From an uncultured Gemmatimonadales bacterium (lineage in GTDB: Bacteria; Gemmatimonadota; Gemmatimonadetes; Gemmatimonadales; GWC2-71-9): a stretch of DNA of 64,000 nucleotides. Every line of letters begins with the position of its first letter. Within the stretch, counting starts at the first letter, position 1. The translations under genes were made by a program, and so were the position numbers. Below, one piece after another: positions 11,060 to 27,457 of the stretch. Below the pieces are notes generated by a model, which was not told the DNA's origin, did not search any database, and saw only the letters and a program-made list of their open reading frames with translations. The stretch lies in assembly GCA_963828735.1 (NCBI GenBank), contig CAWHFW010000002.1, positions 640,001 through 704,000 on the forward strand. Reading direction: 5' to 3'.

Positions 11060-11062
11060 CCC

Positions 11063-11662: not shown

Positions 11663-11741
11663 GGCTGGAGCTGGCGTTGCGCGCCGACCGGACGTGAACG
11701 GATCGCGCACGACGTGATCGGCGGGCGGTGGTGTCGCGGTC

Positions 11742-11794
11742 GCAGCGGAGCGGAGGGCTCGGACCCTGAGAGCGATCATGGCCTCGACATCACC
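11742..11794. repeat. 53-bp diverged copy of 11997-12049
   Basis: 46/53 identical by manual alignment; encodes GDVEAMIALRVRALRSA vs GDAEAMIAARVRALRSV. Confidence 0.75.
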
Positions 11795-11812
11795 CACCCC
11801 GACGTCGCCCGG

Positions 11813-12328
11813 TCAGGCCGCCACGCCCGCCCCGCACTGCGCGCAGAAGCGGGAGCCCTCGCCGAGCATGGCGCCACACCCCGCGCATGCTCCGCCCTCC
11901 GCAATCCGGCGCCCGCACGTGGAGCAGAATGCCGCGTCCGGCTCGGGACGCGGGCCGCAGGAGGCGCATGCAGGTGCCTCTGGTGACGCCGAGGTGGCAA
12001 CGGAGCGGAGGGCGCGAACCCTCGCAGCGATCATGGCCTCGGCATCACCTGTCCCGGCGGCGTCCGCCGATTCGGCGCGCAACGCCTCGAGGGCGGCGCC
12101 CGTGTATTTCCGCTTGAGGAACTCGTAGTCCTCGTCGGAGAGCTTGCCGGTCTCCCGGTCGAACTCGATCTCCTTGAGCGCCGAGAGCGCCACGCCCCTG
12201 GGCGTCTCCTCGGGATCAGGCGGCTCGTAGATCGGGGGTTTCGGCGAACTGGGGAGGAGCAACGGCTGAAGTATCACCCACACCACCGCGAGCCCTACCA
12301 GGGCCGCAGCCACCACCTCGAGCGCCAT
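11813..12328 (-). CDS. Membrane protein with CcmI-N-like region and double zinc ribbon
   Basis: N-terminal TM, LKEIEFDRETGKLSDEDY motif, four CxxC pairs (CASC, CSTC, CAGC, CAQC). Confidence 0.8.
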   Translation of the reverse strand: MALEVVAAALVGLAVVWVILQPLLLPSSPKPPIYEPPDPEETPRGVALSALKEIEFDRETGKLSDEDYEFLKRKYTGAALEALRAESADAAGTGDAEAMIAARVRALRSVATSASPEAPACASCGPRPEPDAAFCSTCGRRIAEGGACAGCGAMLGEGSRFCAQCGAGVAA

Positions 12329-12954
12329 CAATCCTCCACGTCGGCCAGGGCCCGACGCAGTCGCTCCATTTCCTCCGGGCTCGCCTCGAGCGGCTGGGCC
12401 GGCTCCGCCGGTGCCACGGCCGCCACCGCCTGCCGCCGCCGAATCAGGAATATCAGCGCAACGCCGGCGGCCGTGATGGCCGCGCCAGGAACCAGGTAGC
12501 CGGCCAGATTGAAGCCTCGCGGCTTCGGAGCCATGAGCGCTTTCTCGCCGTACTTGGCCACGAACGCATCGAGCACCTGCTGGGCCGTCATGCCCTCGCT
12601 GCGAAGCGCGAGCACCTCGCGATGGAGTCGCGGAGAGTAGGTACAGGAGAAGTCGGTGGTTCGGCAGGTGAAGACGTCGAGGGTGCAACCGCAGTTGCAG
12701 GCCAGCCGAAGCTCGATCGCCTGGATCTCCGCGGCATCCTCCGCGGCGTCCGTGGGCGCCTGGGAGCGCCCCACCGCGGAGGGGTCTCGCAGCGTCCCGA
12801 TCGCGCCGCGGCCGGCCAGCGAGTCCTGGAGCGCGGCCGCCGCCCCGGCTGATATCGCGGATGCGGGCGCGGTCATCGGCTGCAGGAGCGGAACCGCAGC
12901 AAGCGCCAATCCTCGGCGAAGGAAATCGCGTCGGGCGCCGGACGTGTCGCTCAC
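12328..12954 (-). CDS. ccmH: Cytochrome c biogenesis protein CcmH/NrfF-like (variant)
   Basis: LACNCGC...TC...C, GMTAQQVLDAFVAKYGEKALMAP motif, C-terminal TM; directly follows ccmF. Confidence 0.8.
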   Translation of the reverse strand: MSDTSGARRDFLRRGLALAAVPLLQPMTAPASAISAGAAAALQDSLAGRGAIGTLRDPSAVGRSQAPTDAAEDAAEIQAIELRLACNCGCTLDVFTCRTTDFSCTYSPRLHREVLALRSEGMTAQQVLDAFVAKYGEKALMAPKPRGFNLAGYLVPGAAITAAGVALIFLIRRRQAVAAVAPAEPAQPLEASPEEMERLRRALADVED

Positions 12955-14984
12955 TCCTTCCCCGCCCCCACGAGCGAGACCCCATAGCCGCCCTGCGCCG
13001 GGCGCGACGGCGCCACGGCGGGCCCGCCACCCGGCCACATGGTGACGATACCGCCGAATGCGAGCACAAAGCCCCCGAACCACACCCACCACACGAGCGG
13101 GTTGATGTTGAACCGGTACACCGCTTCCTCGGTCCCGTTTACCGCCCCCGCGAACACCATGTAGAGGTCTTCCCGCAGGCCGCTCCGGATCCCGACCTCC
13201 GTGGACGGCTCGAAGGTCGGCCGCTTGAAGCTGTCCACGTGCTGGCGCTTCTCGCTGGTGAGCAGGCCCGCGGGGCGCCCGTCGATTGCGACCTGGACCG
13301 TCGCCGCGCTGACCACCCGGTTCAGCGCCTCGTACTGCGAGATCCCCACGTGCGTGAACCGGTAGGTGTGCCCGAACGGGCTCCGGAGCTCGACCGACTC
13401 ACCCGGCTTGAGCGTGGCCTCGCGCTCGACCCGAAACGCCATGCCGGCGAAGGCCACGAAGTAGATGAGCACGCCCACGTGCACGAGGTACCCGCCATAC
13501 CGGCGGCGGTTCCGCTCGATCAGTCGGAACAGCGCGACCGGTACCGACTCCTGATGCATCCGCCGGCGCGCGCGCACACCGCGATAGAACTCCTGAGTCA
13601 CCGTGCCGGCCACGAAGGCGGCGAGCGCGAAGGCGATCACCGCGTACGAGTCCCGGACCCCGGCGGCGAGGAGCGCGACCAGCGCGACGGACCCCGTCGC
13701 CACCGGCACCACGAACTGTCGCCGCAGGTTTGCCGTCGATGCCTTGCGCCAGGCGATGAGCGGACCGATGCCCGTGAGGCCCAGCAGCAGCAGCCCCAGT
13801 GGCACGTTCACCCGATTGAAGAACGGCGGCCCCACCGTAATCTTGGTGCCCCGCACCGCCTCGGACAGGATCGGGAACAGCGTTCCCCACAACACCGAGA
13901 ACGCGATACCCACCAACAGGAGATTGTTGAACAGGAACGCGGCCTCACGGCTCAGCATCGACTCCAGCTGAACTTCGGCCTCGAGCGCGGGCCACCGGGA
14001 ATACAACAGCGTGAACGACAGCACGGCGGCCACGGTCAGGAACGCCAGGAAGAAGTACCCGACGTTCGACTGCGTGAAGCTGTGCACGCTCGCGATGACC
14101 CCGGACCGGGTGATGAACGTCCCGAAGATGCTCAGGAGGAACGTTCCGATGATCAATCCCAGGTTCCAGCGCTTGAGCATGCCGCGCTTCTCCTGGATCA
14201 TGACCGAGTGCAGGAACGCCGTCATGGTGAGCCAAGGGAGGAAGCTCGCGTTCTCCACGGGATCCCAGGCCCAGTACCCGCCCCACCCCAGCTCGACGTA
14301 GGCCCACCACATGCCGAGCGTGATGCCGATCGAAAGGAAGAGCCAGCTCACCAGCGTCCACTTGCGGATGGCGTGGATCCATCCCGTGTCGAGCCGCCGC
14401 GAGAGCAGCGCCGCCACGGCAAAGGCGAATGGAATCGTGATGCTGATGTAGCCGAGGTAGAGCATCGGCGGGTGAATCACCATGCCGACGTTCTGAAGCT
14501 GCGGATTGAGCCCGCGGCCGTCGGCGGGCGTGAAGGACAGCCGCTCGAAGGGGCTCGACCCGAACAGCATCACGCTGACGAAGAACACGACGACGCTGGA
14601 CGTGACGCCCGCGACGTAGGGCAGCAAGTCGGCGTAGCGCCGCGAGGTCAGGAGCTGGGCCAGGCTGGCGAACAGGGACAACACGACCGCCCAGAAGAGC
14701 AGCGACCCCTTCTGCCCCGCCCAGAACGCCGACACGATGAAGTAGGGCGGCAGGTTCCGGCTGGTGTACGCGGCGACGTACTCGATGTTGAAATCGTGGG
14801 TGATGAGCCCCTTCCACAGCGCGATCGACGCGACCACGAGGCATCCGAAGACCGCGTAGACCGAGCGCGTCACGGTCGCGGCCAGATCGGGCCGGTCCTG
14901 CCACCGCCCCGAAAAGGCGATCGCCGCGCCCCAGAGGCCGACCAGGAGCGCGGCCCACAGCGCGAACTGTCCCAGCAAGGTCAT
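12951..14984 (-). CDS. ccmF: Cytochrome c biogenesis heme lyase CcmF
   Basis: WAGQKGSLLFW, GLNPQLQ, HPPMLYLGY, WWD domain WGGYWAWDPVENAS, SVHSF. Confidence 0.98.
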   Translation of the reverse strand: MTLLGQFALWAALLVGLWGAAIAFSGRWQDRPDLAATVTRSVYAVFGCLVVASIALWKGLITHDFNIEYVAAYTSRNLPPYFIVSAFWAGQKGSLLFWAVVLSLFASLAQLLTSRRYADLLPYVAGVTSSVVVFFVSVMLFGSSPFERLSFTPADGRGLNPQLQNVGMVIHPPMLYLGYISITIPFAFAVAALLSRRLDTGWIHAIRKWTLVSWLFLSIGITLGMWWAYVELGWGGYWAWDPVENASFLPWLTMTAFLHSVMIQEKRGMLKRWNLGLIIGTFLLSIFGTFITRSGVIASVHSFTQSNVGYFFLAFLTVAAVLSFTLLYSRWPALEAEVQLESMLSREAAFLFNNLLLVGIAFSVLWGTLFPILSEAVRGTKITVGPPFFNRVNVPLGLLLLGLTGIGPLIAWRKASTANLRRQFVVPVATGSVALVALLAAGVRDSYAVIAFALAAFVAGTVTQEFYRGVRARRRMHQESVPVALFRLIERNRRRYGGYLVHVGVLIYFVAFAGMAFRVEREATLKPGESVELRSPFGHTYRFTHVGISQYEALNRVVSAATVQVAIDGRPAGLLTSEKRQHVDSFKRPTFEPSTEVGIRSGLREDLYMVFAGAVNGTEEAVYRFNINPLVWWVWFGGFVLAFGGIVTMWPGGGPAVAPSRPAQGGYGVSLVGAGKE

Positions 14985-14996
14985 ATCGCGGAGATC

Positions 14997-15410
14997 TCAG
15001 GCTTTGGGGACGGCCTCGTAGCGGGAGCCGCATTTGGCGAGCACATCGGTGGCGCGGATGACGCCGTCCCTGCCGAGCCGACCCTCGACGACGACTTCGA
15101 TGTCGTTCGCATCCGTGAAGGTATCGGGCACCAGGCCGTGGTAGGTGACCGGATAGGTCTTCACGCCGTCCGAGACCTTGAAGTCGATCGTGCGCGCGGC
15201 GGCGTCGCGGTGGACGGAGCCCGGCACCACCTTCGCGCCCACCTTGAAGCCCACGTTGTCCACGAATGTCGGATCGGCGGCGGTCTTGGCAGCCAGCTCG
15301 GCGGGGGTGAGAAAATACACCCCGGTTTCCTTCACGCCTTCGCCGATCAGGAACCCCACGCTGCCCACGATCAGGGCTGCCCCGAGCAAGAACTTATGGC
15401 CTGCCTTCAT
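14997..15410 (-). CDS. ccmE: Heme chaperone CcmE, Cys variant (CxxxY)
   Basis: YFLTPAEL, YHGLVPDTF, VVVEG, VLAKCGSRY. Confidence 0.92.
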   Translation of the reverse strand: MKAGHKFLLGAALIVGSVGFLIGEGVKETGVYFLTPAELAAKTAADPTFVDNVGFKVGAKVVPGSVHRDAAARTIDFKVSDGVKTYPVTYHGLVPDTFTDANDIEVVVEGRLGRDGVIRATDVLAKCGSRYEAVPKA

Positions 15411-15471
15411 GTCCGGCTCCCCGTCGTAGGTCGCGCCACCCGGCGAAAGCTTCCCCGTCCCGCGCCCGGAT

Positions 15472-16269
15472 TCAAGTGCCCGGCGCTGCCGATTTGGATT
15501 TGAGCGCCTGCTGATGGAACTCATCCAGCGACTTCTTGTGGTCGGCGTATTCCGGGCGCGCCGCCTTCATCTCGGCGTCGTAGTGCTCCAGGAACCCCGC
15601 GTACGCCTTGGCCAGCGCCTTGTCGTCCTTCTGCCACCGGGCCACGGTCCCCCGGATGATGTACCCGAAAAGATGCCCTGGCTGGCGGGTCAAAATGGTG
15701 TCGGCGATGGCGGTGGGCCCGGCGGCGTCGCCGCTGTGCACTTCCAGCAGGGCAGCGTGGTAGCGGGCGTCGGCATCCACGGAATCCAGCTGGTTGTACG
15801 CCATGAGTGCCATCGGCATGAAGCGGTTCACCGTGGCTTCGTCGCCCGCCTGCGCGGCGCTCATCACACGGTTGTACAGCCGGTCGAAGCGCTCGCGGGG
15901 TGACATGTTGCTGATGTCCGGCGGCGTGCCTCCGTCGCCATCCGTCAGTCCAGGCGCGGGCCCCGTGTCCGCCGCGGCGGCCACCGGAGTCGACGGTGTT
16001 CGCGAGACCATGAACAGCAGACCGACCAGCAGCGCGACCAGGGCCGCCCCGGCGATGATCCAGGGTGTGCGGTCCGCGCGGCCGCTCGTGGCGGCGGAGC
16101 CGGCGGCCAGGCCGTGCCCGCACGCCGGGCAGAACTTCGCCCCGGCGGTGACGGCCCCACCGCAGTGGCGGCAGGCAGAGGCGCCCTTGGGCGCGCCGCA
16201 ATTCGAGCAGAAGCGGCCCGCCCCCGAGGCTCCGCAGGCGGCACAGGTGGCGGACGAAGGATCGCTCAT
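15472..16269 (-). CDS. Double zinc-ribbon membrane protein with C-terminal helical (TPR-like) domain
   Basis: CAAC, CSNC, CRHC, CPAC; single TM; helical C-terminus; ATGA overlap with the hydrogenase protease. Confidence 0.75.
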   Translation of the reverse strand: MSDPSSATCAACGASGAGRFCSNCGAPKGASACRHCGGAVTAGAKFCPACGHGLAAGSAATSGRADRTPWIIAGAALVALLVGLLFMVSRTPSTPVAAAADTGPAPGLTDGDGGTPPDISNMSPRERFDRLYNRVMSAAQAGDEATVNRFMPMALMAYNQLDSVDADARYHAALLEVHSGDAAGPTAIADTILTRQPGHLFGYIIRGTVARWQKDDKALAKAYAGFLEHYDAEMKAARPEYADHKKSLDEFHQQALKSKSAAPGT

Positions 16270-16841
16270 GGGCGCCGATCGGGCTGGTCGCAGTGGGAAC
16301 GAGGAACTGAAGGCAAATCTAGCGCAATTGCGCCGGGGCGGGCTCGTTCGGAGGTCCGGTGAACCAGGTGGTGCCCCCAGGCGGCGAGCTGGGTGGCGGC
16401 CGCGCGAACCGCGTCGTCAAGTGCGCGCGCGACCTCATGACTCAGCCCGCCCGGCCGGACGCATGCTGGCTGGAGGCCGATCGCGGCGAGCCGGGGGGGC
16501 AGCGTACCCCGCAGCTGGCCCAGGGCCAGCACCTCGGGCAAGCCGGACTGATGGCAGGAGATCCGGTGACCCAGCATTCGTGGAAGCTGGTCGTCGTTCA
16601 GCCGCACGAGCGATCCGGGCGACTGGCCGGCGTCGATCGCGTCGAGCACCAGGACCGCCTCAGCCCCCTCGATCAGCGGCAGGAGCGAGAGCCCGAGGGT
16701 GCCCCCGTCCACCGGCCGGACCAGCGGCGGCAGCCGCCACCGGCTGGTCAGCCGTTCCAGGGCGACGAGGCCGAGGCCGTCGTCTCCCATCAGCGGATTG
16801 CCTAGCCCGATGACGAGGGTTTCCGCGGCAACTTCATTCAT
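16266..16841 (-). CDS. Hydrogenase maturation endopeptidase (HyaD/HybD family)
   Basis: LVIGLGNPLMGDDGLG, VDGGT, LDAID, SCHQ, IGLQP. Confidence 0.93.
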   Translation of the reverse strand: MNEVAAETLVIGLGNPLMGDDGLGLVALERLTSRWRLPPLVRPVDGGTLGLSLLPLIEGAEAVLVLDAIDAGQSPGSLVRLNDDQLPRMLGHRISCHQSGLPEVLALGQLRGTLPPRLAAIGLQPACVRPGGLSHEVARALDDAVRAAATQLAAWGHHLVHRTSERARPGAIALDLPSVPRSHCDQPDRRP

Positions 16842-17595
16842 CCACAAACCGGCGTCCCGAGGGTACGAACCGCCCCCCGGTAACGATGGAGGAGATGGAG
16901 CCGCCTCGCTCCAGCACATCGGCTCGCATGGCGAGGTAGACGTGGATGGGCACGAAAATGCAGAAGATCCACGTGGAGACGTGGTGAATCAGGCGGACGA
17001 CCTGCATGCCGCCCAGGAGGGGACCCAGCCAGCCGAATGCGCGGAAGAAGAAGCCGCCGGGATCGAATTGCCCGTACATAGCGAATCCGGTCACCACTTG
17101 GATGAAGGCCACCGCATAGATCCCAGTGTAGCTCAGCTGCTGGAGCGGGTTGTGGCCCAGGTAGTGGGGCGCCTCCTCGGGCCGGATCATGAGGTAGAAC
17201 TTGACCTGGCGGACCATGTTGACCAGGTCGCGGGGACGCACCGGGAACAGCGCCGACAAGCGCTCGAACTTGTTGCCGGCCCAGAGCCAGTAGACCCGGA
17301 CGATCGCGGTAGCCACGAGCACGCCAGCGGCTCCGAAGTGCACGGCCCGCATCCAGCCCATGAGGAAATGCGAGCTGGTATCACCCGAGACCATGAAATA
17401 GGGCTTCCCGATGTACAGGCCGGTGACCACCAGCATGACGATCGAGAGAGCGGCGAGCCAGTGCATGGCGCGCACCGGCCACCCCCACAGGTAGACCCAG
17501 TGGTAGTCGCCGGTCGGGGGCGGGACCTGGCGGGACCGCGAGATCCCGGGCCCGCGCCGCGCCGCGGACGGCGGGCTCGAGGCCGAACCGCTCAC
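16834..17595 (-). CDS. [NiFe]-hydrogenase b-type cytochrome subunit (HyaC/CybH type)
   Basis: PVRAMHW, TGLYI, RAVHF, GHNPLQQLSY, RLIHH, HVYLA; four TMs. Confidence 0.93.
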   Translation of the reverse strand: MSGSASSPPSAARRGPGISRSRQVPPPTGDYHWVYLWGWPVRAMHWLAALSIVMLVVTGLYIGKPYFMVSGDTSSHFLMGWMRAVHFGAAGVLVATAIVRVYWLWAGNKFERLSALFPVRPRDLVNMVRQVKFYLMIRPEEAPHYLGHNPLQQLSYTGIYAVAFIQVVTGFAMYGQFDPGGFFFRAFGWLGPLLGGMQVVRLIHHVSTWIFCIFVPIHVYLAMRADVLERGGSISSIVTGGRFVPSGRRFVDE

Positions 17596-19307
17596 TGAAC
17601 CACCACCCGGACGATCTCCCCGCCCGAGGCATCGAGCACGTGCACTCCGCAGGCCATGCACGGGTCGAAGGAGTGAATGGTGCGCAGAATCTCGAGCGGC
17701 TGCTCGGGGTTGACCAGCGGGTGGTTGTCCATCAGCGCGGCCTCGTACGGACCCGACTGGCCCTGCGCGTCGCGCGGCGAGCAGTTCCAGGTGCTGGGCA
17801 CCACGCATTGGTAGCGCGAGATCGCGCCGTTCTCGATTTGCACCCAATGGCCCAGCGCGCCCCGCGGCGCGTCGAGGAACCCGTACCCCTGCGCCTTCGC
17901 CGGCCACGAGGACGGCTCCCATTTCTCGCCGGCGAAGGTCTTGGTGTCGCCGCTCTTGATCCGGTCGACCAGCCGGTCGTACCAGGTGCTCATGCGGCGC
18001 GCGAGCAACACGGTCTCCATGCCCCTGGCGGCCGTGCGGCCGAGCGTGGAGAACAGCGCGGCGGGTCCCACCTGCAGCCGGTCCAGCACCTCCTTCACCA
18101 TCGCGCGAATGTCCTCGTGTCCGCCGGCGAAACCCACCAGCATGCGGGCGAGCGGGCCGACTTCCATCGCCTTGCCGTCATACCGGGGCGCCTTCATCCA
18201 GGTGTACTTCTTGGAATCCTGGAGGTAGGTCCACGGTGTGGGCGGGCCGGCATATTTCGCCTTCGTCTCTCCCTCCCACGGATGCAGCCCCGCCGAATCG
18301 CCCTTGGAGTACTCGTACCACGAGCTGGTGATGAACTCCTTGATCTGCATCTGATCATAGGGCCAGACCTTGGTCAGGTCGCGATCGAGCACGATGCCAC
18401 GCGGGAAGTAGAGCTTCTCGGTGTCTCGAATATCGCCGTCGGGAAACTCGCCTACCGTCATGTAGTTCCGGACCCCGCCGCCGATGGACGCCCACTCCTT
18501 GTAGAAGCCGGCGATGGCGAGGATATCCGGCCAATACACCTGCTCGACGAACAACTGGGCCCGCGTGATCATGCCGTGGATCTGGCTCAGCCGCACCGCG
18601 TTGATGGTCGCGGTGTCGTCGAGGTTGATGGCCGAGGCCATCCCGCCCACCAGGAAGTTGGGATGCGGGTTCTTGCCGCCGAAAATGGTGTGCAGCCGGA
18701 TCACGTCGCGCTGCCAGTCGAGCGCCTCGAGGTAGTGCGCCACCGCGAGCAGGTTGACCTCGGCAGGCAGCTTGTATCCCGGGTGTCCCCAATATCCGTT
18801 CGTGAAGATCCCGAGCTGCCCGCTGCCGACAAACTTCTTGATCCGCTCCTGCACCTGCCGGAAATAGGCCTCGGAGTTGTTGGGCCACGGTGAGATCTTC
18901 CGCGCCAGCGCCGAGGTGCCCGCCGGATCTGCCTTGGTCGCGCTCACCACGTCCACCCAGTCGAGCGCATGGAGGTGGTAGAAGTGGATCACGTGGTCCT
19001 GAACGAACTGCATGCCGTGGACCAGGTTGCGGATCAGATTGGCGTTGGGCGGGATGGTGATGTCGAGGGCGTCCTCCACCGCGCGGCACGAGGCTACGGC
19101 ATGGACCACCGTGCACACCCCGCAGATGCGCTGCGTGAACGCCCAGGCGTCGCGCGGGTCCCGGCCGTGCATGACGACCTCGATGCCGCGAAACTGAGTG
19201 GACGTCGCCCACGCCTTGCTGATCCGGCCGCCTTCGGCCTGAGCCTCGATGCGGAGGTGACCCTCGATGCGTGTAATTGGGTCGACGACGACCTTGGTTA
19301 CGCTCAT
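17592..19307 (-). CDS. Group 1 [NiFe]-hydrogenase large subunit
   Basis: DPITRIEGH, L1 TQRICGVCTVVH, L2 SFDPCMACGVH plus cleavable C-terminal tail. Confidence 0.98.
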   Translation of the reverse strand: MSVTKVVVDPITRIEGHLRIEAQAEGGRISKAWATSTQFRGIEVVMHGRDPRDAWAFTQRICGVCTVVHAVASCRAVEDALDITIPPNANLIRNLVHGMQFVQDHVIHFYHLHALDWVDVVSATKADPAGTSALARKISPWPNNSEAYFRQVQERIKKFVGSGQLGIFTNGYWGHPGYKLPAEVNLLAVAHYLEALDWQRDVIRLHTIFGGKNPHPNFLVGGMASAINLDDTATINAVRLSQIHGMITRAQLFVEQVYWPDILAIAGFYKEWASIGGGVRNYMTVGEFPDGDIRDTEKLYFPRGIVLDRDLTKVWPYDQMQIKEFITSSWYEYSKGDSAGLHPWEGETKAKYAGPPTPWTYLQDSKKYTWMKAPRYDGKAMEVGPLARMLVGFAGGHEDIRAMVKEVLDRLQVGPAALFSTLGRTAARGMETVLLARRMSTWYDRLVDRIKSGDTKTFAGEKWEPSSWPAKAQGYGFLDAPRGALGHWVQIENGAISRYQCVVPSTWNCSPRDAQGQSGPYEAALMDNHPLVNPEQPLEILRTIHSFDPCMACGVHVLDASGGEIVRVVVQ

Positions 19308-20452
19308 GAGCCGCTCCCTGGGGCACCGCCCGAGGGCGGCGGCTCCACCACCGGCAGCGCGCGCCGCGCCCGGACCTGGTGGACGCCGGTGGCGATCGCG
19401 TGCGCCGCGACGCCGGCCGCAGCCCCGGCGGCCAGCGCAGCACCGAACAGATCGAGGTTGCGCTCAACGCCGAACCCGCTGACCCCGGGGAGCCGCTCGT
19501 AGAACGGCGTCATGGTGTCCCAGAAGTTCGGCTCAGTACAGCCGATGCAGGGATGTCCGGCGCCGATGGGCCAGCTGGTGCCTGAGTTCCACTGGAAGAT
19601 CGGACAGGGAGAGAAGGTCGCCGGTCCTTTGCACCCGACATGATAGAGGCACCAGCCTTTTCGTGCCGCCTCGTCGTCGAACTCCTCCACGTACTGGCCG
19701 GCATCGTAGTTGGCCCGCCGCGGGCACTGGTCATGAATGCGTGCGCCGTAGGCGAACAGCGGCCGGCCCTCGCCGTCCAGCGCGGGGAGGCGGCCGAACG
19801 TCAGGTAGTGGACGATGGTGGCGGTGACCACGTCGCCGATCGGCGGACACCCCGCGATGTTCACCACCGGCTTGTCCTTGACGATGGTCGATACGCCCAC
19901 CGCCCCCGTCGGGTTGGGCCGCGCCGCCTGGACGCTACCCCAGTGCGCGCAGGCGCCGATGGCGATGACCGCCGCGGCGCCGGCCGCTGCCTCCTCGAGG
20001 ATGACCTTCGCCGTGCGGCCCGCGATCGTGGTGTAGATACCGTCGTCCGCCAAAGGCACGGATCCGGTCACCACCAGCAGGTACTTCCCGGCGTTTCCCT
20101 TCATCGCATCGTGCAGCGCCCGCTCGGCGGCCCCACCGGCCGCGGCCATCAGGGTGTGCGAGTAGTCGAGCGAGACGAGATCCAGGATCAGGTTGCCGAT
20201 GGTGGGATCCGCCGTGCGCAGCACGCTCTCGACGCACCCGGTGCATTCCTGGAGCTGGATCCAGACGACCGAGGGCCGCGTCATCGTTTCCAGGGCGCGG
20301 GCGATTCGTGGGATGGCCAGACGATCGAGGCCGAATACTGCGGCTAGGCCTCCGCAGAACTCGAGGAACTCGCGACGGGAGACGCCTCGTGACCGGAGAT
20401 GATCACCGAGGGAGTCACCATCACTCCACGGAATGGGATGGGGAACCAGCAT
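19304..20452 (-). CDS. Group 1 [NiFe]-hydrogenase small subunit, Tat-exported, C-terminal TM anchor
   Basis: RBS AAGGAG; SRREFL Tat motif; ECTGC, GAC, GCPP, HDQC, WCLYHVGCKGP, GHPCIGC. Confidence 0.97.
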   Translation of the reverse strand: MLVPHPIPWSDGDSLGDHLRSRGVSRREFLEFCGGLAAVFGLDRLAIPRIARALETMTRPSVVWIQLQECTGCVESVLRTADPTIGNLILDLVSLDYSHTLMAAAGGAAERALHDAMKGNAGKYLLVVTGSVPLADDGIYTTIAGRTAKVILEEAAAGAAAVIAIGACAHWGSVQAARPNPTGAVGVSTIVKDKPVVNIAGCPPIGDVVTATIVHYLTFGRLPALDGEGRPLFAYGARIHDQCPRRANYDAGQYVEEFDDEAARKGWCLYHVGCKGPATFSPCPIFQWNSGTSWPIGAGHPCIGCTEPNFWDTMTPFYERLPGVSGFGVERNLDLFGAALAAGAAAGVAAHAIATGVHQVRARRALPVVEPPPSGGAPGSGS

Positions 20453-20723
20453 CGTGGCTCCTTCGGCTGAGGGCCGAGCGCGAAGCGACGCGCCGAGTGC
20501 GGTCGGGCGGGATACGCGAACAAAATCAAGGATTTGAAGGCGGATCCCCATAGTCAAGCTAGACCATGGTCTCGGCCAGTGTTCGTGAAGGTTTTCTTAG
20601 GGAAGGGAGGGTCTACGAACGTATAGTATTGCGCAAATCGCAGGGATGGATAAAAGTAGTAGCGGTTCTGGCCCGTCCCGTGTCCCACCGCGTCGCTCGA
20701 AAACAGCAGGCCAAGGCGGACCT

Positions 20724-22346
20724 ATGCCGACTGCTAGGGTTCTCCACCGACCCCTTCTTCCGCTGGTCGCGACCGTGGCAGCGTTGCTGCTGGCCTGTAG
20801 CGACACCCAGGAAGTCCCGCGAGAGCCGTTCAATCCACCTCCCGATCAGACCAACAAGTTCCTGGGCTACTTCACTGCCAGCGACAAGCTGACCGCCTGC
20901 GGCAACTGCCACGCCGAAAAGCAGGCGGACTGGGCCAACACCAAGCACGCCCAGGCCTGGGCAGACCTCGTGGCCTCCGGTCATCAGAACTCGGACTGCA
21001 ACAGTTGCCACAGCGTGAGCGAGCGGGGGAACGCCGCCGCAGCGCCGGCGGGGTACACCGCGGTCGCCGACACCGCGTACCAGGACGTCCAGTGCGAGAG
21101 TTGTCATGGATCGGGCTTCGAGCATGCGTCGAGCCCGACGATCGAGAACCGGCCACTCGCGACCATAGCCATCCCGGCCGATCCGGCGCAGTGGGTCGAG
21201 TCCTCCACATGCGGCTCCTGCCATCAGGGCAGCTTCTCGCCGTTCGTCGAGCAGTGGAGCCAGTCGGCGCACGCCAGGACGGTGACGGACGTGATCCAGG
21301 ATATCGTCGACGATCCTGGCACCAGCTGCTCCGCGTGTCACGAGGGACGGCATGTCCTCGAGGCGTGGGGAGTCAACACGAATTACGTCGAGAAGGACGA
21401 GACGGTCACCCTCGAGAACGCGATGCCGACCACCTGCGCGATCTGCCACGATCCGCATGCAAAGGATCACGAGGGACAACTTCGCTGGGCGATCGACGAT
21501 CCCAATCCCGATAACAACTTGTGCATGAAGTGCCACAACCGGCGCACCGAGCCACAGGCGACGAGCTCGCGAGGTCCGCATGCGCCGCAGGGTGGCGTGC
21601 TCCTGGGCACCGCGGGGTACTGGCCGGCCGGCTTCGATACCACGGCTGTCACCGCCACGCACGGGAACGTCGCCGTCAACACCCGGCTCTGCGCGGGCTG
21701 CCACGTCGCGCCGTTCGAGGTCACCGACGCGAGCGGGAACGTGACCTTCCAGTCGACCGGGCACAGCTTCAGCCCCGACCCGTGCATCGACGCCAGCGGG
21801 AAGCCCACGGGCGACACCACCTGCGCGCGGCCCGGTGATCCCACCTTCGTGAGCGGTGTGCGCAAGTTCAACGGCTGCACAGCCTCCGGCTGTCACTCGA
21901 CCGAGGAAGCCGCGGAGAACGCCTTCGAGGCGAACCGCAATATCGTCCGGCTGCTGGCCGACCAGCTCTGGGTCGACGTCAACGGCAACCAGGTGTTGTA
22001 CACGACCGATCCGGTCACGGGCCAGGCCACTGGCTTCGATCCCGGTGACACGGGGCTGCTGACGCAGGTGCCGGTGACCGAGTTCAATGCCACGGACAAC
22101 AAGATTACCGACGCGGAGGGCGTGCTCTTCAACGTGCGGCTCATCGGAGAGAACCGTTATGCCAACGGCGATCGCTCGTTCGGGGCCCACAATCCGTTCC
22201 TGTCGCAGTCGCTGTTGACGGCGAGCATCGACGCGCTGAAGGCCACGTACGGGCTCGCCGTGACGCCGCAGGTGCAGAGGCTCATGGACCAGGTCAAGGC
22301 GCGGAACCCCCGGGCGCGCGCCCAGTTCACGATCAGTCGGAGGTGA
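20724..22346 (+). CDS. Multiheme c-type cytochrome lipoprotein (8 CxxCH + 1 CX4CH)
   Basis: Lipobox LLAC; motifs CGNCH, CNSCH, CESCH, CGSCH, CSACH, CAICH, CMKCH, CAGCH, CTASGCH; C-terminal GDRSFGAHNP..LL..SI helix. Confidence 0.92.
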   Translation: MPTARVLHRPLLPLVATVAALLLACSDTQEVPREPFNPPPDQTNKFLGYFTASDKLTACGNCHAEKQADWANTKHAQAWADLVASGHQNSDCNSCHSVSERGNAAAAPAGYTAVADTAYQDVQCESCHGSGFEHASSPTIENRPLATIAIPADPAQWVESSTCGSCHQGSFSPFVEQWSQSAHARTVTDVIQDIVDDPGTSCSACHEGRHVLEAWGVNTNYVEKDETVTLENAMPTTCAICHDPHAKDHEGQLRWAIDDPNPDNNLCMKCHNRRTEPQATSSRGPHAPQGGVLLGTAGYWPAGFDTTAVTATHGNVAVNTRLCAGCHVAPFEVTDASGNVTFQSTGHSFSPDPCIDASGKPTGDTTCARPGDPTFVSGVRKFNGCTASGCHSTEEAAENAFEANRNIVRLLADQLWVDVNGNQVLYTTDPVTGQATGFDPGDTGLLTQVPVTEFNATDNKITDAEGVLFNVRLIGENRYANGDRSFGAHNPFLSQSLLTASIDALKATYGLAVTPQVQRLMDQVKARNPRARAQFTISRR

Positions 22347-22401
22347 GCAAGCCCAGGAAGGGATCGACTCCGGCCACGTTCACCGGTTAGCATTTTTCGG
22401 C

Positions 22402-24455
22402 ATGATCGGGCTCCTCGCCACGATCGCTTCGGCCACGGCTCCTCTCCCGGGACGGGAAGGGGCCGTGGTCGCTGTGTTGCAGGCCCAGGACACGCTGACC
22501 CAGCACTTCGTCGATTCTATCGTCGTACGCTCGCCGCTGCCCGACCCGCTCGTTCCAATCGTTCAATGGATCTTCCAGAAGCCCGGCTGGGTCATGGCCG
22601 GCGGGATCGTGATCGGCGCGCTGGTGGCGACCGCCGCGATCGTCCTGCTGTGGCGCCACCGCCGGGCCATCGGCACGTGGCTGGTCACGCGGGATCGGGG
22701 CGCGAAGCTCGCCATGCTCGGCGCCGCGGCGCGGTCCTGCTGCTCATGGTCGGGACGGGCGTGAAGGCGTACGACTACATGATGCACGACAACGACTTCT
22801 GCCGTGGCTGCCACATCTTCGTCCCCAGCGGGCAGATCTTCGTCCGCCCCGACACCGGCACCTATCTCCTGGTCAACAAGCTGGAGGGGAAGCACGACAC
22901 GCTCAGTTGCCACAGCTGTCACCCGTTCGAGCTGAAGGCACAGACTAAGGAGCTGTTCTACTGGATCATCGACCGCCCGGATCAGGTTCCGCCTCACGCC
23001 AAGGTACCGCGTCACGTCTGCGAGGGCTGCCACGTCCAGGGCGAGGCCAAGAAGACCTGGGCTCGCATCGCGTCGACGGCCGGCCACCGGACGCACCTGG
23101 AATCCGACTCCTCGGCGCTCAAGGACGTCGCTTGCCTGACCTGCCACGCGCGCAGCGCGCATCGGTTCCAGCCCGCGGACACGACCTGCGCGCAGAAGGG
23201 CTGCCATCTGACGGACGACGTCAAGATCAAGCTCGGACGGATGGCAGCCCGTTTCGCGCCCGCGAATCTTCGCCCGCTGCCCAACGAGGAGAAGCTCTAT
23301 TGCAACTCCTGTCACCAGTTCACCGCCGAGGCGCAGTTCGTGAGCCGGGACTCGGCGACGGGTATCCTCACCCCCGGCTCTCGCCAGTGTTTCGGCTGCC
23401 ATGAGATGCGGCAGCTCCTGGCGGGCTTCGACCCGGCCAGAGAGCCGCACCGGGGCAGCTGCGGGACGTGTCACAACCCTCACAGCGATGTGAAGCCCGC
23501 GGACGCGCTCAAGTCCTGCGCCGATGCCAACTGTCACGCCGACTGGCGAGGTGTCGCGTTCCATGTCGGCGCGGCGCACAAGAAGGTCGCGGAGCGCTGC
23601 CAGACCTGCCACGTCCCCCACGCCGCGCGGGTGGACGCGAGCGACTGCGTCGGATGTCACGAATCGGTGCGTAAGAACGGAGGCAAGTTCCGGCCTCCGA
23701 TGCCGTTCGATACGACCAAGGCGCTGCAGCAGAGCATGCGGCTCATCGAGCCGGGGCGCGCCCGCGGGCGTGGCGGTGACCCGCCGTCAGACGACCCTCC
23801 CGGGGGGGAGCGGACCGCGCGACCCGTCGCCCCCGCTGACACGTTTTCCCACGCGCGCCACCGCCGACTCGCCTGCATCACCTGCCACACGACCTCATCC
23901 CCGACGCGCACGCTCACCTTCGAGCAGCCGCAGGGGATGCCAGATCTGCCACCACCAGCGGCCGGCCTCGAGCAAGTGCACGACCTGCCACCAGTCGTCC
24001 GAGCTCTCCGAGCCGCAGCCGGTCTCCGTCGAGGTGTCCGTGCGCGGACACGCCTGCTCGGTCACGGGAAGTCTCCTTCGACCACGCAAAGCACCCCGAC
24101 CTTTCCTGTATCGAGTGCCACACCGGCGCCGTGACCCTCGAGCCCGAACCTCCAGTGGCGACGTGCACGGCATGCCACGACGACCACCATGCCGCCGGCC
24201 GGGACTGCGCCACCTGTCATCGAAGCACGGACATCATCAACGCGCATGCGCCCCCGATCGACGCCCACCAGGCCTGCGACCAGTGCCACGCGGAGCGCAC
24301 GGTCGGAAGGCTGGCGCCGACGCGCTCGTTCTGCCTGGCCTGCCACGGCAGCGAGACCGATCATCACGCCGAGAAGGAGTGCACGGTCTGCCACCTTCAA
24401 GCCACTCCGGACGCAGTACCGCGTCAAGCTGACCGGCACGGGTAAGGGACCGTGA
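22402..24455 (+). CDS. Membrane-anchored ~20-heme cytochrome c with NapC/NirT-like N-terminus (four apparent single-base frameshifts near 22728, 23931, 24052, 24413)
   Basis: Joining frames gives N-terminal TMs, 18 CxxCH and 2 CX4CH; the reconstructed end QYRVKLTGTGKGP* overlaps the next gene by GTGA. Confidence 0.8.
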
Positions 24456-25960
24456 GATTCGCGTCACGGTGCGCCGTCGCGCTCGGCGTGGGGTGTCTCT
24501 GCCTGGCCGGGTCTGGGGCGCAGGCCCAGGGCTACCGCCTGCGCCTGGACTCGCGGGTGCAACGGGCCAGCTATCGTGGCGTCATGGCGGATAGCATCCT
24601 CGGAACCCAGGCCGTGACCGGCCCGACCGGTGGCTTCGAGACCCCGGACGGGTTCGCGGTCCGCTGCTCGACGTCCAGCGCCTACTGCTTCTACTTCCGC
24701 CCGGGGCCGGAATTGGACGGGGCGCCCCTGGTCTCCTCCGCCGATCTGACCCTCTGGGGGTTTGGCGTTCGCGGGTTGAGCCTCCGTCTAAACGGGCGGG
24801 TCGGCGTCGACCTGGGAGCAAGCGACGTCTGGCCGGGCGTCGAGCCGGCAGTGCAGCTCATCGAGGCTTACGCCGAGTATGCGCAGCCGGTGTTCACGGT
24901 TCGCGCCGGCCGGCAGCTGCTGGCGAATCGCCTGGGGACGCTGGGATTCGACGGGGGGAAGGTGACGATCCGGCCGGGCCGCCTGGGACTCGAGGCCGTG
25001 GTCTATGCCGGTCTCGGGCTCGCCCGCGCGACTGCCATTCCCGTGACGAGCCCGGTCCTCAATCCACTCGACGACTTCCAACCCAGCAGTCGCCAGATCC
25101 TGGCCGGCGCCGCGGTGGGATACAGCCGGGCCGAGATCGATGTCCGAGCGGACTACCAGCGCGAGCTCGACGGGGACACGCGGAATTTCGTGTCCGAGCG
25201 CGCCGCGCTCTCGCTCGACCTGCGCCCGCTGCCGCACTGGAGCCTCGAGTCCGGCGTGGACTACGACCTGGCGAACACCTGGTTCGGGAGTGCCGACGCG
25301 GTGGTCCGGTATACCTCATCCCGGATCACCGTGGCGGGCGGCGTCAGGCAATACCGGCCGCATTTCGACCTGTGGACCATCTGGGGGGCGTTTACGCCGG
25401 TGCCGTACCACGCGGGGAACATCGCGGTCTGGATCCGCCCGATTCGTGGGCTCGAGCTGCGAGGGCAGTGGGAGAGCTACGCGTACTCCGAGACGGCGAC
25501 CGAGACTCCGTTGGTCCAGGTCGACGACGACGGCTGGCGTCTGGGCACGGGCGTGACCTACAGCCCGTCGGCCGCCTGGAGACTGGATGCCGGCTATCGG
25601 GAGGAGAACGGACCCGGCGCGTCGTCCCATGGATTCGATGGCACCGTCACCTTCGTTCCGTTTCCCGCACTCTCGCTCACCGCCTACGGAACGACGCTCG
25701 ACCGCCCGCTCGAGTTCCGCTTCGAGGAGGCGTCGGTCGATGCGCTGGGCCTCGACGCCGAGTGGAGCCCGACGAACCGGCTTCGATTCGCGGTCGGCAT
25801 CGCGCGTTACATGGAGGACCGCAAGCGTCCGGACGCGGCGGCGTTCGACTGGGACCAGACTCGCCTTCATGCCAGCCTGACGCTGCTTCTCCAAAGCAAC
25901 GCCGATGTCGCGCCGCTGCCGCGCGCGCTGCGGACGTACCCCCCGGCGGGCTCGCCGTGA
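24452..25960 (+). CDS. Large outer-membrane beta-barrel (putative porin of a porin-cytochrome complex)
   Basis: Signal peptide ending AQA, no heme motifs, many amphipathic strands (EAYAEY, VRAGRQ, FDGGKV), located between cytochrome genes. Confidence 0.75.
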   Translation: MRFASRCAVALGVGCLCLAGSGAQAQGYRLRLDSRVQRASYRGVMADSILGTQAVTGPTGGFETPDGFAVRCSTSSAYCFYFRPGPELDGAPLVSSADLTLWGFGVRGLSLRLNGRVGVDLGASDVWPGVEPAVQLIEAYAEYAQPVFTVRAGRQLLANRLGTLGFDGGKVTIRPGRLGLEAVVYAGLGLARATAIPVTSPVLNPLDDFQPSSRQILAGAAVGYSRAEIDVRADYQRELDGDTRNFVSERAALSLDLRPLPHWSLESGVDYDLANTWFGSADAVVRYTSSRITVAGGVRQYRPHFDLWTIWGAFTPVPYHAGNIAVWIRPIRGLELRGQWESYAYSETATETPLVQVDDDGWRLGTGVTYSPSAAWRLDAGYREENGPGASSHGFDGTVTFVPFPALSLTAYGTTLDRPLEFRFEEASVDALGLDAEWSPTNRLRFAVGIARYMEDRKRPDAAAFDWDQTRLHASLTLLLQSNADVAPLPRALRTYPPAGSP

Positions 25961-27393
25961 TGCTCCGGGGACTGAGACTCCTCGTCCTCGTCGCGCTCTC
26001 GGTCGCCGCTGGCGGCTGGGCCGTGCAGCACGCGTTGCAGGAACGGTTTGATCACTGGCAACACCGCGCGCTCTTTCCAACGTGCATCGGCTGCCACGCC
26101 GGCGCGGCGGATTCCAGCCGATCGCTCTGGCCCCAGCCGTCCGATTGCAAAACCTGTCACGACGGTGCGGTCGAAAAGGCGGTGGAGTGGGCGCCGCCGG
26201 GCGCGCCTCGCGCGAGCAACCTCCGATTCACCCATCAGGACCACGCTCGCGCACTCGCGCACTCCCGCGGCGCCGATTCCACGCTTCGGTGCAGCGCCTG
26301 CCATACCTCGCAGGGAGCTGATCGCATGCGGGTCAGCTCAGCGGTCGTGGAGAATTGCCTCGAATGTCATGGCATCAGGACCGCGCATCTGAGCGCACCG
26401 GACACGGCGTGCGTCACGTGCCACGTACCGCTGGTACAGGCGGTGCGGCTCACCGAGGAACGGGTGAAGGGCTTTCCGGTCCCCGACTCTCATCGCGAGC
26501 CGGGCTTCGCGTCGACCGGCCACGGGAAGCTCGCACGGGCCGGCGGCGCTCCCGTTGCAGCCTCCTGCGCCACGTGCCACGCCCGGGACTACTGCACCCA
26601 ATGCCACGTGAACGCCCCCGAGGTGCAGGCCATCCAGGCGCTGGGTCCAGACCCGCGATCGCTCGCGATCGAGGCAAAGCTCGAGGCCCCGGAAGACCAT
26701 GCTGACCCGAACTTCCTCCGACGGCATGGAGGCCAGGTCCGGAAGGAGTCAGGCCGGTGTGCGGTCTGCCACACGCAGCAGAGTTGCGTCGCGTGCCATG
26801 TCGGCTCGCCCGCGAGCGTGCAGGCGATCCCGATCGCCGGTCCCGGCCGGGGCCCAGGTGCCACGATCCACCGGGAGCGACCGATCTCTCACGGTCAGAA
26901 TTTCTCCAAGACGCATGCCGAGCCGGCTTCGGCGCGGCCTCAGACCTGCAGCGGTTGCCACGCCCGCGCGGAATGTCTCTCCTGCCACCGGCCGGACGCG
27001 GCCGAGGCGTCGCCGGGCTTCCATCCCGCGGGCTTTCTCACGACCCACCCTTCGGCGGCCTACTCCCGTGAGAGTTCGTGCAGTGAATGCCATAACCAGG
27101 GGCAGTTCTGCACCAATTGCCACGTGAATGCCGGGCTGGTATCGCCCGGTCGCCTCCGAGGTACCGGCTATCACGACGCCAAGCAGTCTTTCCTGCTCAA
27201 CCACGGTCAAGCGGCGCGCCAGAGCCTGGAGACCTGTGTCTCCTGCCACTCCGAGCGTGACTGCCTGACCTGCCACTCCGCGGTGGGCGGCCGCCGCTTC
27301 GACCCCCACGGCCCAGGCTTCGATGCGGCGACGCTCAAGCGGAAAAATCCATCCATGTGCACCGCCTGCCACGGCCTCAACACTCCAGAGTGA
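25960..27393 (+). CDS. Exported 16-heme c-type cytochrome
   Basis: N-terminal signal or anchor; 16 CxxCH, including five paired H..F...H...CxxCH-x4/5-CxxCH modules. Confidence 0.92.
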   Translation: MLRGLRLLVLVALSVAAGGWAVQHALQERFDHWQHRALFPTCIGCHAGAADSSRSLWPQPSDCKTCHDGAVEKAVEWAPPGAPRASNLRFTHQDHARALAHSRGADSTLRCSACHTSQGADRMRVSSAVVENCLECHGIRTAHLSAPDTACVTCHVPLVQAVRLTEERVKGFPVPDSHREPGFASTGHGKLARAGGAPVAASCATCHARDYCTQCHVNAPEVQAIQALGPDPRSLAIEAKLEAPEDHADPNFLRRHGGQVRKESGRCAVCHTQQSCVACHVGSPASVQAIPIAGPGRGPGATIHRERPISHGQNFSKTHAEPASARPQTCSGCHARAECLSCHRPDAAEASPGFHPAGFLTTHPSAAYSRESSCSECHNQGQFCTNCHVNAGLVSPGRLRGTGYHDAKQSFLLNHGQAARQSLETCVSCHSERDCLTCHSAVGGRRFDPHGPGFDAATLKRKNPSMCTACHGLNTPE

Positions 27394-27457
27394 ACAGGTC
27401 TTTCGCCCTGGGGCGCTGCGTTCGCGCGATCAATGCCGCCCGGTCCGGTGACCTGAG

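Follow-up and report, generated by a model that had tools for sequence, protein, structure and literature searches.

Genes at the locus

The window analysed here is a stretch of 64,000 nucleotides from an uncultured Gemmatimonadales bacterium (GenBank assembly GCA_963828735.1, contig CAWHFW010000002.1, positions 640,001 to 704,000 of the forward strand). It has a G+C content of 68% and is placed on contig C2 of a seven-contig, 4.78-Mb genome (genomes, contigs, loci and sequencing runs are numbered G, C, L and X, this genome being G000). Relatives of its proteins are named as Gemmatimonadales or Gemmatimonadota. Between positions 11813 and 27393 it carries genes for a [NiFe] hydrogenase and for cytochrome c maturation, head to head with a cluster for three multihaem cytochromes and an outer-membrane barrel. 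Gene calls rest on translation and on Pfam and NCBIfam profile searches. They define two divergent units, i.e., nine minus-strand genes (11813..20455) and four plus-strand genes (20724..27393), with a spacer between them:

11813..12328, minus strand: ZnR2, zinc-ribbon protein (PF12773, E 3e-8; TIGR03142, E 0.0056, under its cut-off)
12328..12954, minus strand: ccmH-like protein (PF03918, 49.8 bits; cut-off 25)
12951..14984, minus strand: ccmF, haem lyase subunit (PF16327 and PF01578)
14997..15410, minus strand: ccmE, haem chaperone (PF03100, 86.9 bits; cut-off 24.6)
15472..16269, minus strand: ZnR1, zinc-ribbon/transmembrane protein (PF13240/PF12773)
16266..16841, minus strand: HyaD/HybD-family maturation endopeptidase (PF01750; TIGR00072, 131.3 bits, cut-off 47.45)
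16834..17595, minus strand: hydrogenase b-type cytochrome of the HyaC/HupC type, quinone-reducing membrane anchor (PF01292; TIGR02125, 189.8 bits, cut-off 121.5)
17592..19307, minus strand: hydL, [NiFe] hydrogenase large subunit (PF00374, 775.6 bits, profile positions 1-508 of 508)
19304..20455, minus strand: hydS, [NiFe] hydrogenase small subunit (PF14720 and PF01058; TIGR00391, 447.8 bits, cut-off 179.5)
20456..20723, no strand: 268-bp divergent spacer between hydS and cyt9
20724..22346, plus strand: cyt9, OcwA-like nine-haem lipoprotein (eight CxxCH and one Cx4CH; lipobox LLACS; PF22113, 32 bits, cut-off 30)
22402..~24455, plus strand: cytB, 20-haem cytochrome (18 CxxCH and two Cx4CH, read through frame breaks; two N-terminal membrane helices)
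24452..25960, plus strand: outer-membrane beta-barrel, 502 aa (signal peptide ending AQA; AlphaFold2 [AF2] model)
25960..27393, plus strand: cyt16, 16-haem cytochrome (16 CxxCH; N-terminal signal or anchor)

Translation and both profile collections bear out the order and strands that a preliminary description of this DNA had given for the nine-gene leftward run, as well as its overlapping or near-abutting junctions. Six of the eight minus-strand junctions are start/stop overlaps: ATGA at hydS/hydL and at protease/ZnR1, GTGA at hydL/cytochrome b (with a GTG start) and at ccmF/ccmH, 8 nt at cytochrome b/protease, and TGATG at ccmH/ZnR2. The other two are gaps of 61 nt (ZnR1/ccmE) and 12 nt (ccmE/ccmF). 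The four rightward genes were also read correctly, with 9, ~20 and 16 haems plus a 502-aa barrel; cyt9, cytB and cyt16 add up to 45 haem motifs, and start/stop overlaps couple cytB, the barrel gene and cyt16 (GTGA and TGATG). The divergent spacer exists, at 268 bp instead of the 271 bp first stated. Genome-wide, the only other open reading frame (ORF) with at least four haem motifs encodes a five-haem protein beside a molybdopterin/FeS protein. This ORF (L048:3020-3724; G000:C5:260500-267500) adjoins a 1001-aa fused molybdopterin/4Fe-4S protein (L048:8-3013), and the two are presumably the ActA/ActB pair of alternative complex III.

The hydrogenase has the subunit families, twin-arginine translocation (Tat) signal, cytochrome b and specific endopeptidase of a group 1 membrane-bound [NiFe] uptake enzyme. 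As in the HupSLC/HyaABC hydrogenases of this group, a single operon provides both subunits, with the Tat signal, along with the b-type cytochrome and the protease. HydS bears the Tat signal SRREFLEF (RRxFL) and a C-terminal hydrophobic anchor. Its proximal-cluster motif is CTGC, the standard type, CTCC being the mark of O2-tolerant enzymes. HydL has DPCxxCxxH near its C-terminus, and the 15 residues beyond it are the tail on which the protease would act. The nearest PDB entries are 3myr_A for HydS (E 1.5e-103) and 3myr_B for HydL (782.7 bits, with Hyd-5 and Hyd-1 behind), and the window hydrogenase scored under the cut-offs of the NCBIfam equivalog models for Escherichia coli Hyd-1 and Hyd-2. 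Unlike the Allochromatium vinosum membrane-bound hydrogenase (3MYR), in which we take Isp proteins to stand in place of such a subunit, the enzyme described here has a HyaC-type cytochrome b as its third subunit. Enzymes of the HyaC/HupC type pass electrons from H2 to quinone. A second [NiFe] hydrogenase is encoded at G000:C5:822300-825400 and 830494-831545; its small subunit starts MPATVPYGRK...EVHVLWITAGLGCDGDSVS and presumably resembles the high-affinity group 1h type.

Three multihaem cytochromes and a predicted barrel

The nine haem motifs of cyt9 are conserved in 24 sequences, together with seven invariant spare His. The single sequence matched OcwA and 6qvm weakly and at low identity (E 1e-7 and 2e-4). 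The profile of the 24-sequence family retrieved 6qvm_A at E 2.7e-19 and OcwA (6i5b_A) at E 2.4e-15, the C-terminal helical GvHN region included, followed by weaker matches to MtrA (6r2q_A, E 9e-7), c554 (E 1e-5) and HAO (E 6e-4). Homology over the haem core and the C-terminal helices, along with the nine haems, places cyt9 in the OcwA-like family of the NrfA superfamily. 6QVM, 'multiheme cytochrome cf', is presumably OmhA of Carboxydothermus ferrireducens. NCBIfam returned a GSU2203-family model (E 5e-8) and an ExtKL-type model (E 3e-6), both far under cut-off. The AF2 model of cyt9 (24-row alignment) was poor, with a predicted local distance difference test (pLDDT) score of 57, and had no Foldseek match at E<=0.001; OcwA came first at E 0.014 and TM 0.3. 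OcwA is described as the nine-haem cell-surface terminal reductase of Thermincola, with six bis-His, one His-Met and two open haems (PMC6703420), and is reported to share a subclade with nonahaem proteins of Gram-negative organisms (PMC7829351). cyt9 shares with OcwA the nine haems, the C-terminal GvHN region and a number of conserved distal His smaller than that of haems. The settings differ, OcwA belonging to a Gram-positive wall without outer membrane or barrel, whereas cyt9 is a diderm lipoprotein encoded with a barrel. By its likeness to OcwA and its lipobox, cyt9 is a candidate terminal reductase that may face outward at the cell surface.

The cytB product combines an NrfH-like head with c7/c3-type repeats. 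In relatives it is intact, a single open frame of ~650-720 aa, with 690-720 codons in four of them, and all 20 haem motifs are kept in 19/19 orthologues (17-19 CxxCH each; 0 Cx3CH). Membership in the NapC/NirT family, as first proposed, fails in Pfam, where PF03264 gave no match for an intact orthologue at E<=1. However, the best PDB match of the family profile is NrfH (2j7a_C, E 7.2e-10, 41 bits, profile positions 77-142 only), which covers the second helix and the first haems over ~60 residues and lends some support to a kinship limited to this head. The next profile matches are a GSU1996-type Geobacter dodecahaem cytochrome (3ov0, E 2e-9) and then 16-haem cytochromes. As in NrfH and CymA, a membrane helix is followed directly by FCxxCH and a second haem, and the placement of cytB corresponds to the role that CymA plays for Mtr; two helices and 20 haems contrast with the one helix and four haems of the NrfH/CymA type. 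The protein is not of the ImcH kind, which is described as having three N-terminal helices, an adjoining Cx3CH motif and 5-9 CxxCH (PMC6295460), since cytB has two helices, no Cx3CH in any of the 19 orthologues and 17-19 CxxCH.

As assembled, cytB is not one open frame, and the preliminary description had read its 20 haems, a count that stands, across frames. DNA alignment with four relatives located single-base indels, one base being lost near 22726 and one inserted at each of two places near 23931 and 24055, and a frame plot of third-position G+C (GC3) shows the coding frame hopping three times within the gene. A fourth break near 24415 is seen in metagenome contigs; the alternative frame past it matches the C-termini of relatives and ends in the GTGA overlap with the barrel start. 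Logan contigs from four public runs (X1, X5, X6 and X16) were aligned over 11800-27400. In X1, whose listed pieces differ from the window by 0-5 letters in 500-770, the frame is restored in all contigs that span the first three sites; X5 and X6 belong to other studies and show the same wherever they reach these sites, and the fourth frame-restoring change is carried by X6 and by the RNA run X16. The frame-restoring bases at the breaks are found in short-read contigs of three independent metagenome studies; other indels in the 15.6 kb occur at 15419 (X16 only) and 22393 (X6 only). In addition, the second hydrogenase and the genome's only hypD, both on contig C5, frame-hop many times yet stay well conserved. 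Because the frame is open in relatives, the environmental contigs are in frame and the C5 genes hop likewise, the cytB breaks most likely reflect errors that affect the consensus of this assembly in patches. A pseudogene peculiar to this strain, which the breaks taken at face value would indicate, is less likely: amino-acid conservation and GC3 are undiminished, and the near-identical environmental contigs and the C5 genes speak against it as well. In the window, uvrA, gyrB, an ABC protein gene, a glycerol kinase gene, ccmF and hydL appear whole. Two relatives show comparable defects. In the few-contig genome G020 (L013, 8355-8765), hydL ends after ~140 residues and the cytochrome b and protease genes are missing, with the cytochrome cluster remaining, and in G031 (L017) each of hydS, hydL and cyt16 is spread over more than one frame; the cause may be gene decay or an assembly error like those in cytB. 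In practice, patchy indel errors in few-contig assemblies can make this cluster resemble a pseudogene.

The 502-aa protein at 24452-25960 was modelled by AF2 from a 26-row alignment with pLDDT 77 and a predicted TM-score (pTM) of 0.70, showing 23 strand elements over residues 27-481. In structural alignment, the top matches were barrel domains of TonB-dependent receptors with 22 strands (Z 18-19.8, 345-381 residues, root-mean-square deviation [rmsd] 4-5.8), the best match having Z 19.8 and rmsd 5.0 over 361 residues. Foldseek retrieved outer-membrane barrels exclusively, with MtrB (6r2q_B) at rank 24 (TMq 0.43). The protein hence models as a wide, plugless barrel of ~22 strands that takes up the whole chain, in agreement with the wide beta-barrel anticipated for it. 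The search of the MtrB/PioB family came out negative, PF11854 having no match at E<=0.01 in the window protein and none at E<=1 in the 26 members of the barrel family. The generic PF13505 is the only Pfam match and occurs in 20/26 members, single-sequence searches assigned the barrel to no Pfam or NCBIfam family, and its nearest protein-atlas clusters are uncharacterised Gemmatimonadota proteins. Prediction of a complex between the barrel (26-502) and cyt16 (23-477), with alignments as input, gave no usable answer (median score 0.24 vs a mark of 0.32).

Across 23 sequences, cyt16 keeps all of its 16 CxxCH motifs and 14 additional His without exception, the pattern that wire haems with bis-His ligation should show. 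The best PDB matches are of the HmcA type (single sequence, E 3e-6; family profile, 2e84, a high-molecular-weight cytochrome c, E 1e-9), and the HmcA equivalog NF045713 scored 18.4 bits against a cut-off of 400. Desulfovibrio HmcA, which takes hydrogenase-derived electrons in the periplasm, also has 16 haems; the match to it spans only ~120 residues, and genes for the HmcB-F membrane complex are absent at this locus, which has an outer-membrane barrel instead. We regard cyt16 as a candidate periplasmic or in-barrel wire.

Linkage across Gemmatimonadales and neighbouring features

We searched 301 Gemmatimonadales genomes for the barrel and for hydL (threshold for hydL, E<=1e-60). The barrel was found in 160 genomes and 56/90 genera (96/136, 40/137 and 23/27 genomes by family), and hydL in 94 genomes, although six of these 94 matches, with no more than 49-60% identity, may represent a different hydrogenase. 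Both genes occur in 89 genomes, hydL alone in 5, the barrel alone in 71 and neither in 136, i.e., the barrel accompanies hydL in 89/94 genomes and is present in 71/207 without it. These counts are given without a probability because related genomes are not independent. Among the matches listed, which leave out 20 of the barrel and may therefore miss some pairs, 41 pairs share a contig: 24 lie within 7 kb, 37 within 25 kb and the remaining 4 are 200-315 kb apart. The 24 close pairs comprise 14 divergent ones at 5.0-5.6 kb, as in the window, and 10 on one strand with the hydrogenase downstream. The hydrogenase-cytochrome adjacency noted in the preliminary description is thus a recurrent one, in three gene orders and two families.

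The first ten loci inspected have a constant core in which the genes for a zinc ribbon, ccmE, ccmF, ccmH and a zinc ribbon run divergently from cyt9-cytB-barrel-cyt16, with the hydrogenase between them in some only. In 20 further loci, the four-gene order is kept in 14 and a variant is found in 6; the hydrogenase cytochrome b subunit is kept in all 20. The arrangement is divergent in 10, on one strand with cytB in 4 (in L023, eight genes follow each other on one strand with 124 bp between cyt16 and hydS), and on one strand without cytB and with two cyt9 copies in 6. The cytB-less loci (L024, L025, L028, L029, L030 and L032, relatives of family f2) have cyt16 and hydS separated by an oppositely oriented gene for a small TPR-like lipoprotein, and a direct hand-over from hydrogenase to cyt16 is conceivable in them. 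With 20 motifs in 19/19 cytB orthologues, the order kept in 14/20 loci and the variant in 6/20, the gene arrangement is more than chance.

Since the pairing survives rearrangement into three orders in two families, it points to a functional tie between hydrogenase and cytochrome-barrel cluster. That the two are independent respiratory modules sharing a variable genomic island beside the ccm genes is improbable in our estimate. Such a history would suit the genomes that have one without the other (71 and 5), the 4 distant same-contig pairs, the truncation of the hydrogenase in G020 next to persisting cytochrome genes, and the S1 order, in which a small opposite-strand gene lies between the units. 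Against it stand the 89/94 hydrogenase genomes that carry the barrel, the 37/41 same-contig pairs within 25 kb among the matches listed, and the three rearranged orders in two families, which shared ancestry of one island explains poorly.

The maturation genes ccmE, ccmF and ccmH all pass the cut-offs of their System I family profiles. The C-terminal motif of CcmE is LAKCGSRY, with Cys at the haem-binding position that is His in the classical motif; presumably this is the CcmE type of the System I variant found in Desulfovibrio and archaea. An RR-type (twin-arginine-type) signal (ARRDFLRRG) marks the ccmH-like protein, which has CNCGC instead of the usual CxxC and whose frame differs from that of a listed 418-aa ORF. 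Haem-attachment genes are thus present in the locus, as first described, but their dedication to the cluster is doubtful: PF01578 has two matches in the genome, ccmF and a 255-aa CcmC-sized ORF on C5, and because ccmF is the only one of CcmF type, the ccm genes are probably housekeeping. ZnR1 consists of an N-terminal double zinc ribbon, a single hydrophobic helix and a helical C-terminal domain, always adjoins ccmE in relatives, and stands beside ccm genes in L013, L016, L018, L022, L033 and L034. ZnR2 has an N-terminal helix with faint likeness to CcmI and a C-terminal double zinc ribbon. The two proteins, which flank ccmEFH in relatives too, may serve as accessory factors akin to CcmI, with their zinc ribbons in the cytoplasm.

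The divergent spacer holds, at 20586-20599, TGAAGGTTTTCTTA, one copy of a 14-bp, 5-4-5 palindrome-like motif, TGAAG-N4-CTTCA, with the geometry of CRP/FNR-type operators. The motif recurs in the hydS/cyt9 spacer of 9/13 divergent-type loci, the window included (positions in relatives, L033:11200, L035:10869, L036:9599, L038:9986, L039:10245 and L040:9667), and upstream of cyt9 in two loci without adjoining hydrogenase, against a genome background of 35 matches to the pattern in 4.78 Mb. A palindrome-defined regulon was considered and rejected, the six perfect copies elsewhere in the genome lying near unrelated genes that form no coherent set (a porin and permease, a Kelch-repeat protein, a two-domain multicopper oxidase, a two-component system, kdpA and a TetR regulator). 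The multicopper oxidase gene (~360 aa, two-domain, possibly NirK) is directly downstream of its palindrome copy (L045:2986). A sigma-70 promoter scan of 11000-28000 found no match, such a scan being uninformative for this phylum.

Four further genes of the window were annotated outside this locus:

1490-1888, plus strand: sulfocyanin (SoxE) domain protein
40557-41003, minus strand: alkylmercury lyase (MerB), fragment-sized ORF
49418-50422, plus strand: CAP12/Pycsar-type TIR effector domain protein
53131-53784, minus strand: cytochrome P460

Near-identical locus DNA is found in rhizosphere and soil metagenomes of several studies (runs X1-X15; the listed pieces of X1 are 99-100% alike), and the organism is therefore a soil and rhizosphere resident. 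The best 80 of 464 relatives are all uncultured metagenome-assembled genomes (MAGs), with no cultured strain among them. In the soil metatranscriptome X16, short contigs 95-99.7% alike cover parts of ccmF, ccmE, ZnR1, hydL, cyt9 and cyt16. They are a hint of expression, in that they carry no information on level, strand or co-transcription and may stem from DNA carry-over.

A possible H2-fed conduit across the cell envelope

The barrel gene is clustered with genes for a periplasmic and a lipoprotein multihaem cytochrome, the gene content of the porin-cytochrome class. With slightly more belief than doubt, we read the locus as encoding outward electron transfer through a trans-envelope conduit of this kind, with the hydrogenase as one of its donors. 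Tat-exported HydSL would oxidise H2 in the periplasm and pass the electrons through the b-type cytochrome subunit to menaquinone, the quinone that Gemmatimonadota are reported to make in place of ubiquinone (PMC9426454). cytB, held in the inner membrane by its two helices, would oxidise menaquinol at the NrfH-like head and carry the electrons along its 20 haems across the periplasm. From there, cyt16 could pass them via 16 haems through the plugless ~22-strand barrel, and cyt9 could hand them to an external acceptor, for example a partner, humic quinones or minerals of Fe(III) or Mn(IV). With H2 split and quinol oxidised on the outer side of the membrane, and with the protons for quinone reduction drawn from the cytoplasm, the path would amount to a proton-motive redox loop; the adjacent ccmEFH would attach the 45 haems. 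We infer the contacts between these proteins, the orientation of cyt9, the direction of flow and the acceptor from the gene content, motifs, fold model, family likeness and linkage described above. A more specific proposal, which we hold as a tentative possibility, is a lineage-specific 45-haem wire that needs no shuttle, in which the NrfH-headed cytB spans the periplasm into the cyt16/barrel/cyt9 module and serves H2-driven respiration with Fe(III), Mn(IV), humics or partner cells as acceptors in anoxic microsites of soil and rhizosphere.

Most of what is understood about extracellular electron transfer comes from Shewanella and Geobacter. The cluster follows the logic of Shewanella MtrCAB (6R2Q), MtoAB and PioAB, in which a barrel of the outer membrane is encoded together with a multihaem cytochrome of the periplasm and a lipoprotein cytochrome of the cell surface, and both cyt9 and cyt16 carry the MtrC/MtrF domain II/IV signature PF22113 (32 and 49 bits; cut-off 30). 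In contrast with Mtr, the haem counts are 9/20/16 instead of 10/10, the barrel has ~22 strands and lacks a PF11854 match whereas MtrB has 26, the quinol enzyme is fused to a 20-haem wire inside the operon, and the cluster proteins score far under the NCBIfam cut-offs for DmsE/MtrA and OmcA/MtrC. The Geobacter systems OmaB-OmbB-OmcB and ExtABCD, of the porin-cytochrome clusters reportedly described by Shi et al. in 2014, likewise combine a porin-like protein with periplasmic and lipoprotein cytochromes of variable haem number. Geobacter encodes its quinol enzymes ImcH and CbcL elsewhere and uses soluble shuttles of the PpcA type, whereas the membrane-anchored cytB could itself bridge the periplasm. 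Full-text literature searches found no paper describing the cluster or its hydrogenase link, although the supplements of PMC11316326 (FeGenie tables, Suppl. Fig. 18) and PMC13264449 (Table S2) may list parts of it. For marine Gemmatimonadota, PMC11316326 reports FeGenie matches to DFE_0461-0465 and Cyc2, three MtrABC operons and a widespread Hya hydrogenase. A putative mtrABC is reported in one estuary bin (PMC4411801), phylum counts include two ImcH homologues and one CbcL homologue (PMC6295460), and a survey of porin-cytochrome clusters in cave MAGs does not single out this phylum (PMC13264449).

The same interpretation had been put forward in the preliminary description, and it is partly supported: the barrel models as wide, the adjacency to the hydrogenase recurs in relatives and two of the cytochromes, cyt16 and cytB, appear to be pure wires, so that none of the three observations named there as able to overturn it went against it. 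Several points nevertheless weigh on the other side. The direction of flow is not readable from sequence, and the conduit is known here from genes and models. The barrel falls outside PF11854 and the intact cytB orthologue outside PF03264; the quinol step is not universal, six loci being without cytB; and the frame of cytB is broken at four places, which, if real, would leave the conduit of this strain dead. The hydrogenase is optional, 71/160 barrel genomes lacking a hydL match at the threshold used, and in the close relatives G026 and G021 no hydrogenase intervenes between the ccm unit and the cytochrome genes, which lie side by side. Kinship among genomes inflates the significance of the association counts. 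As for cyt9, it has nine haems and only seven invariant spare His, its relative OcwA reduces nitrite slowly, and surface exposure of lipoproteins is not the default in diderm bacteria.

The direction could be the reverse, although we regard this as unlikely. An inward conduit would, in the manner of MtoAB/PioAB, supply the quinone pool with electrons drawn from Fe(II), Mn(II), reduced humics or a partner acting like a cathode, with the hydrogenase as a second lithotrophic donor. Porin-cytochrome systems are bidirectional and quinol enzymes of the CymA and CbcL types are reported in reducers and oxidisers alike (PMC6295460). Gemmatimonadales are reported to be mostly aerobes or N2O reducers, to which high-potential acceptors are available (PMC9426454), and the marine Gemmatimonadota paper states that annotation does not distinguish iron oxidation from reduction (PMC11316326). 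The sulfocyanin-domain protein at 1490-1888 of the window would also fit inward flow. However, a pairing of two donors explains the tight and repeated linkage, including the eight-gene one-strand run, less well than a pairing of donor and acceptor. The solved relative of cyt9, OcwA, is described as a terminal reductase, as is 6qvm if it is OmhA, and pushing electrons uphill from Fe(II) to menaquinone would be costly on bioenergetic grounds.

Quite unlikely, in our judgement, is that the cytochromes form an H2-fed reductase system of the periplasm or outer leaflet whose substrate is soluble or diffusible (nitrite, hydroxylamine, sulfur species, peroxide or O2), with the barrel as no more than substrate entry or lipoprotein anchor. 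In cyt16 and cytB, nearly every haem has a conserved second His. A Hya hydrogenase of Geobacter reportedly has a role in oxidative-stress defence, which we count in favour of a soluble substrate, as we do the invariant spare His of cyt9, two fewer than its haems, and the c554 and HAO matches of its profile. For cyt9 such a substrate remains conceivable because the solved OcwA, of the same OcwA/NrfA/c554/HAO superfamily, leaves two haems open and acts on both nitrite and hydroxylamine, although its turnover of nitrite is only ~1 per minute (PMC6703420). Against a soluble substrate, the cluster cytochromes and the 19 cytB orthologues contain no CxxCK motif, the cluster has no match to a Pfam or NCBIfam catalytic family above cut-off, and 36 extra haems on two wire proteins plus a plugless ~22-strand barrel translationally coupled to both would be hard to justify.

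An H2-fed outward conduit would bear on soil biology. Gemmatimonadales are among the commonest soil bacteria and are usually regarded as aerobes, and about half of the sampled genomes of this abundant order (160/301) carry the barrel, repeatedly beside an uptake hydrogenase. The conduit would be built differently from those known, out of an OcwA-type cytochrome (otherwise characterised in Gram-positives), a 20-haem wire with a fused quinol-dehydrogenase head, a 16-haem protein resembling HmcA and a barrel without a family, and would offer new parts for bioelectrochemistry. If the outward reading is right, soil H2 cycling would be linked with the redox chemistry of iron, manganese and humics in bacteria that are not regarded as electroactive; and were the shuttle-free 45-haem wire to prove true, these bacteria would constitute a large unrecognised soil H2 sink and a driver of mineral reduction.

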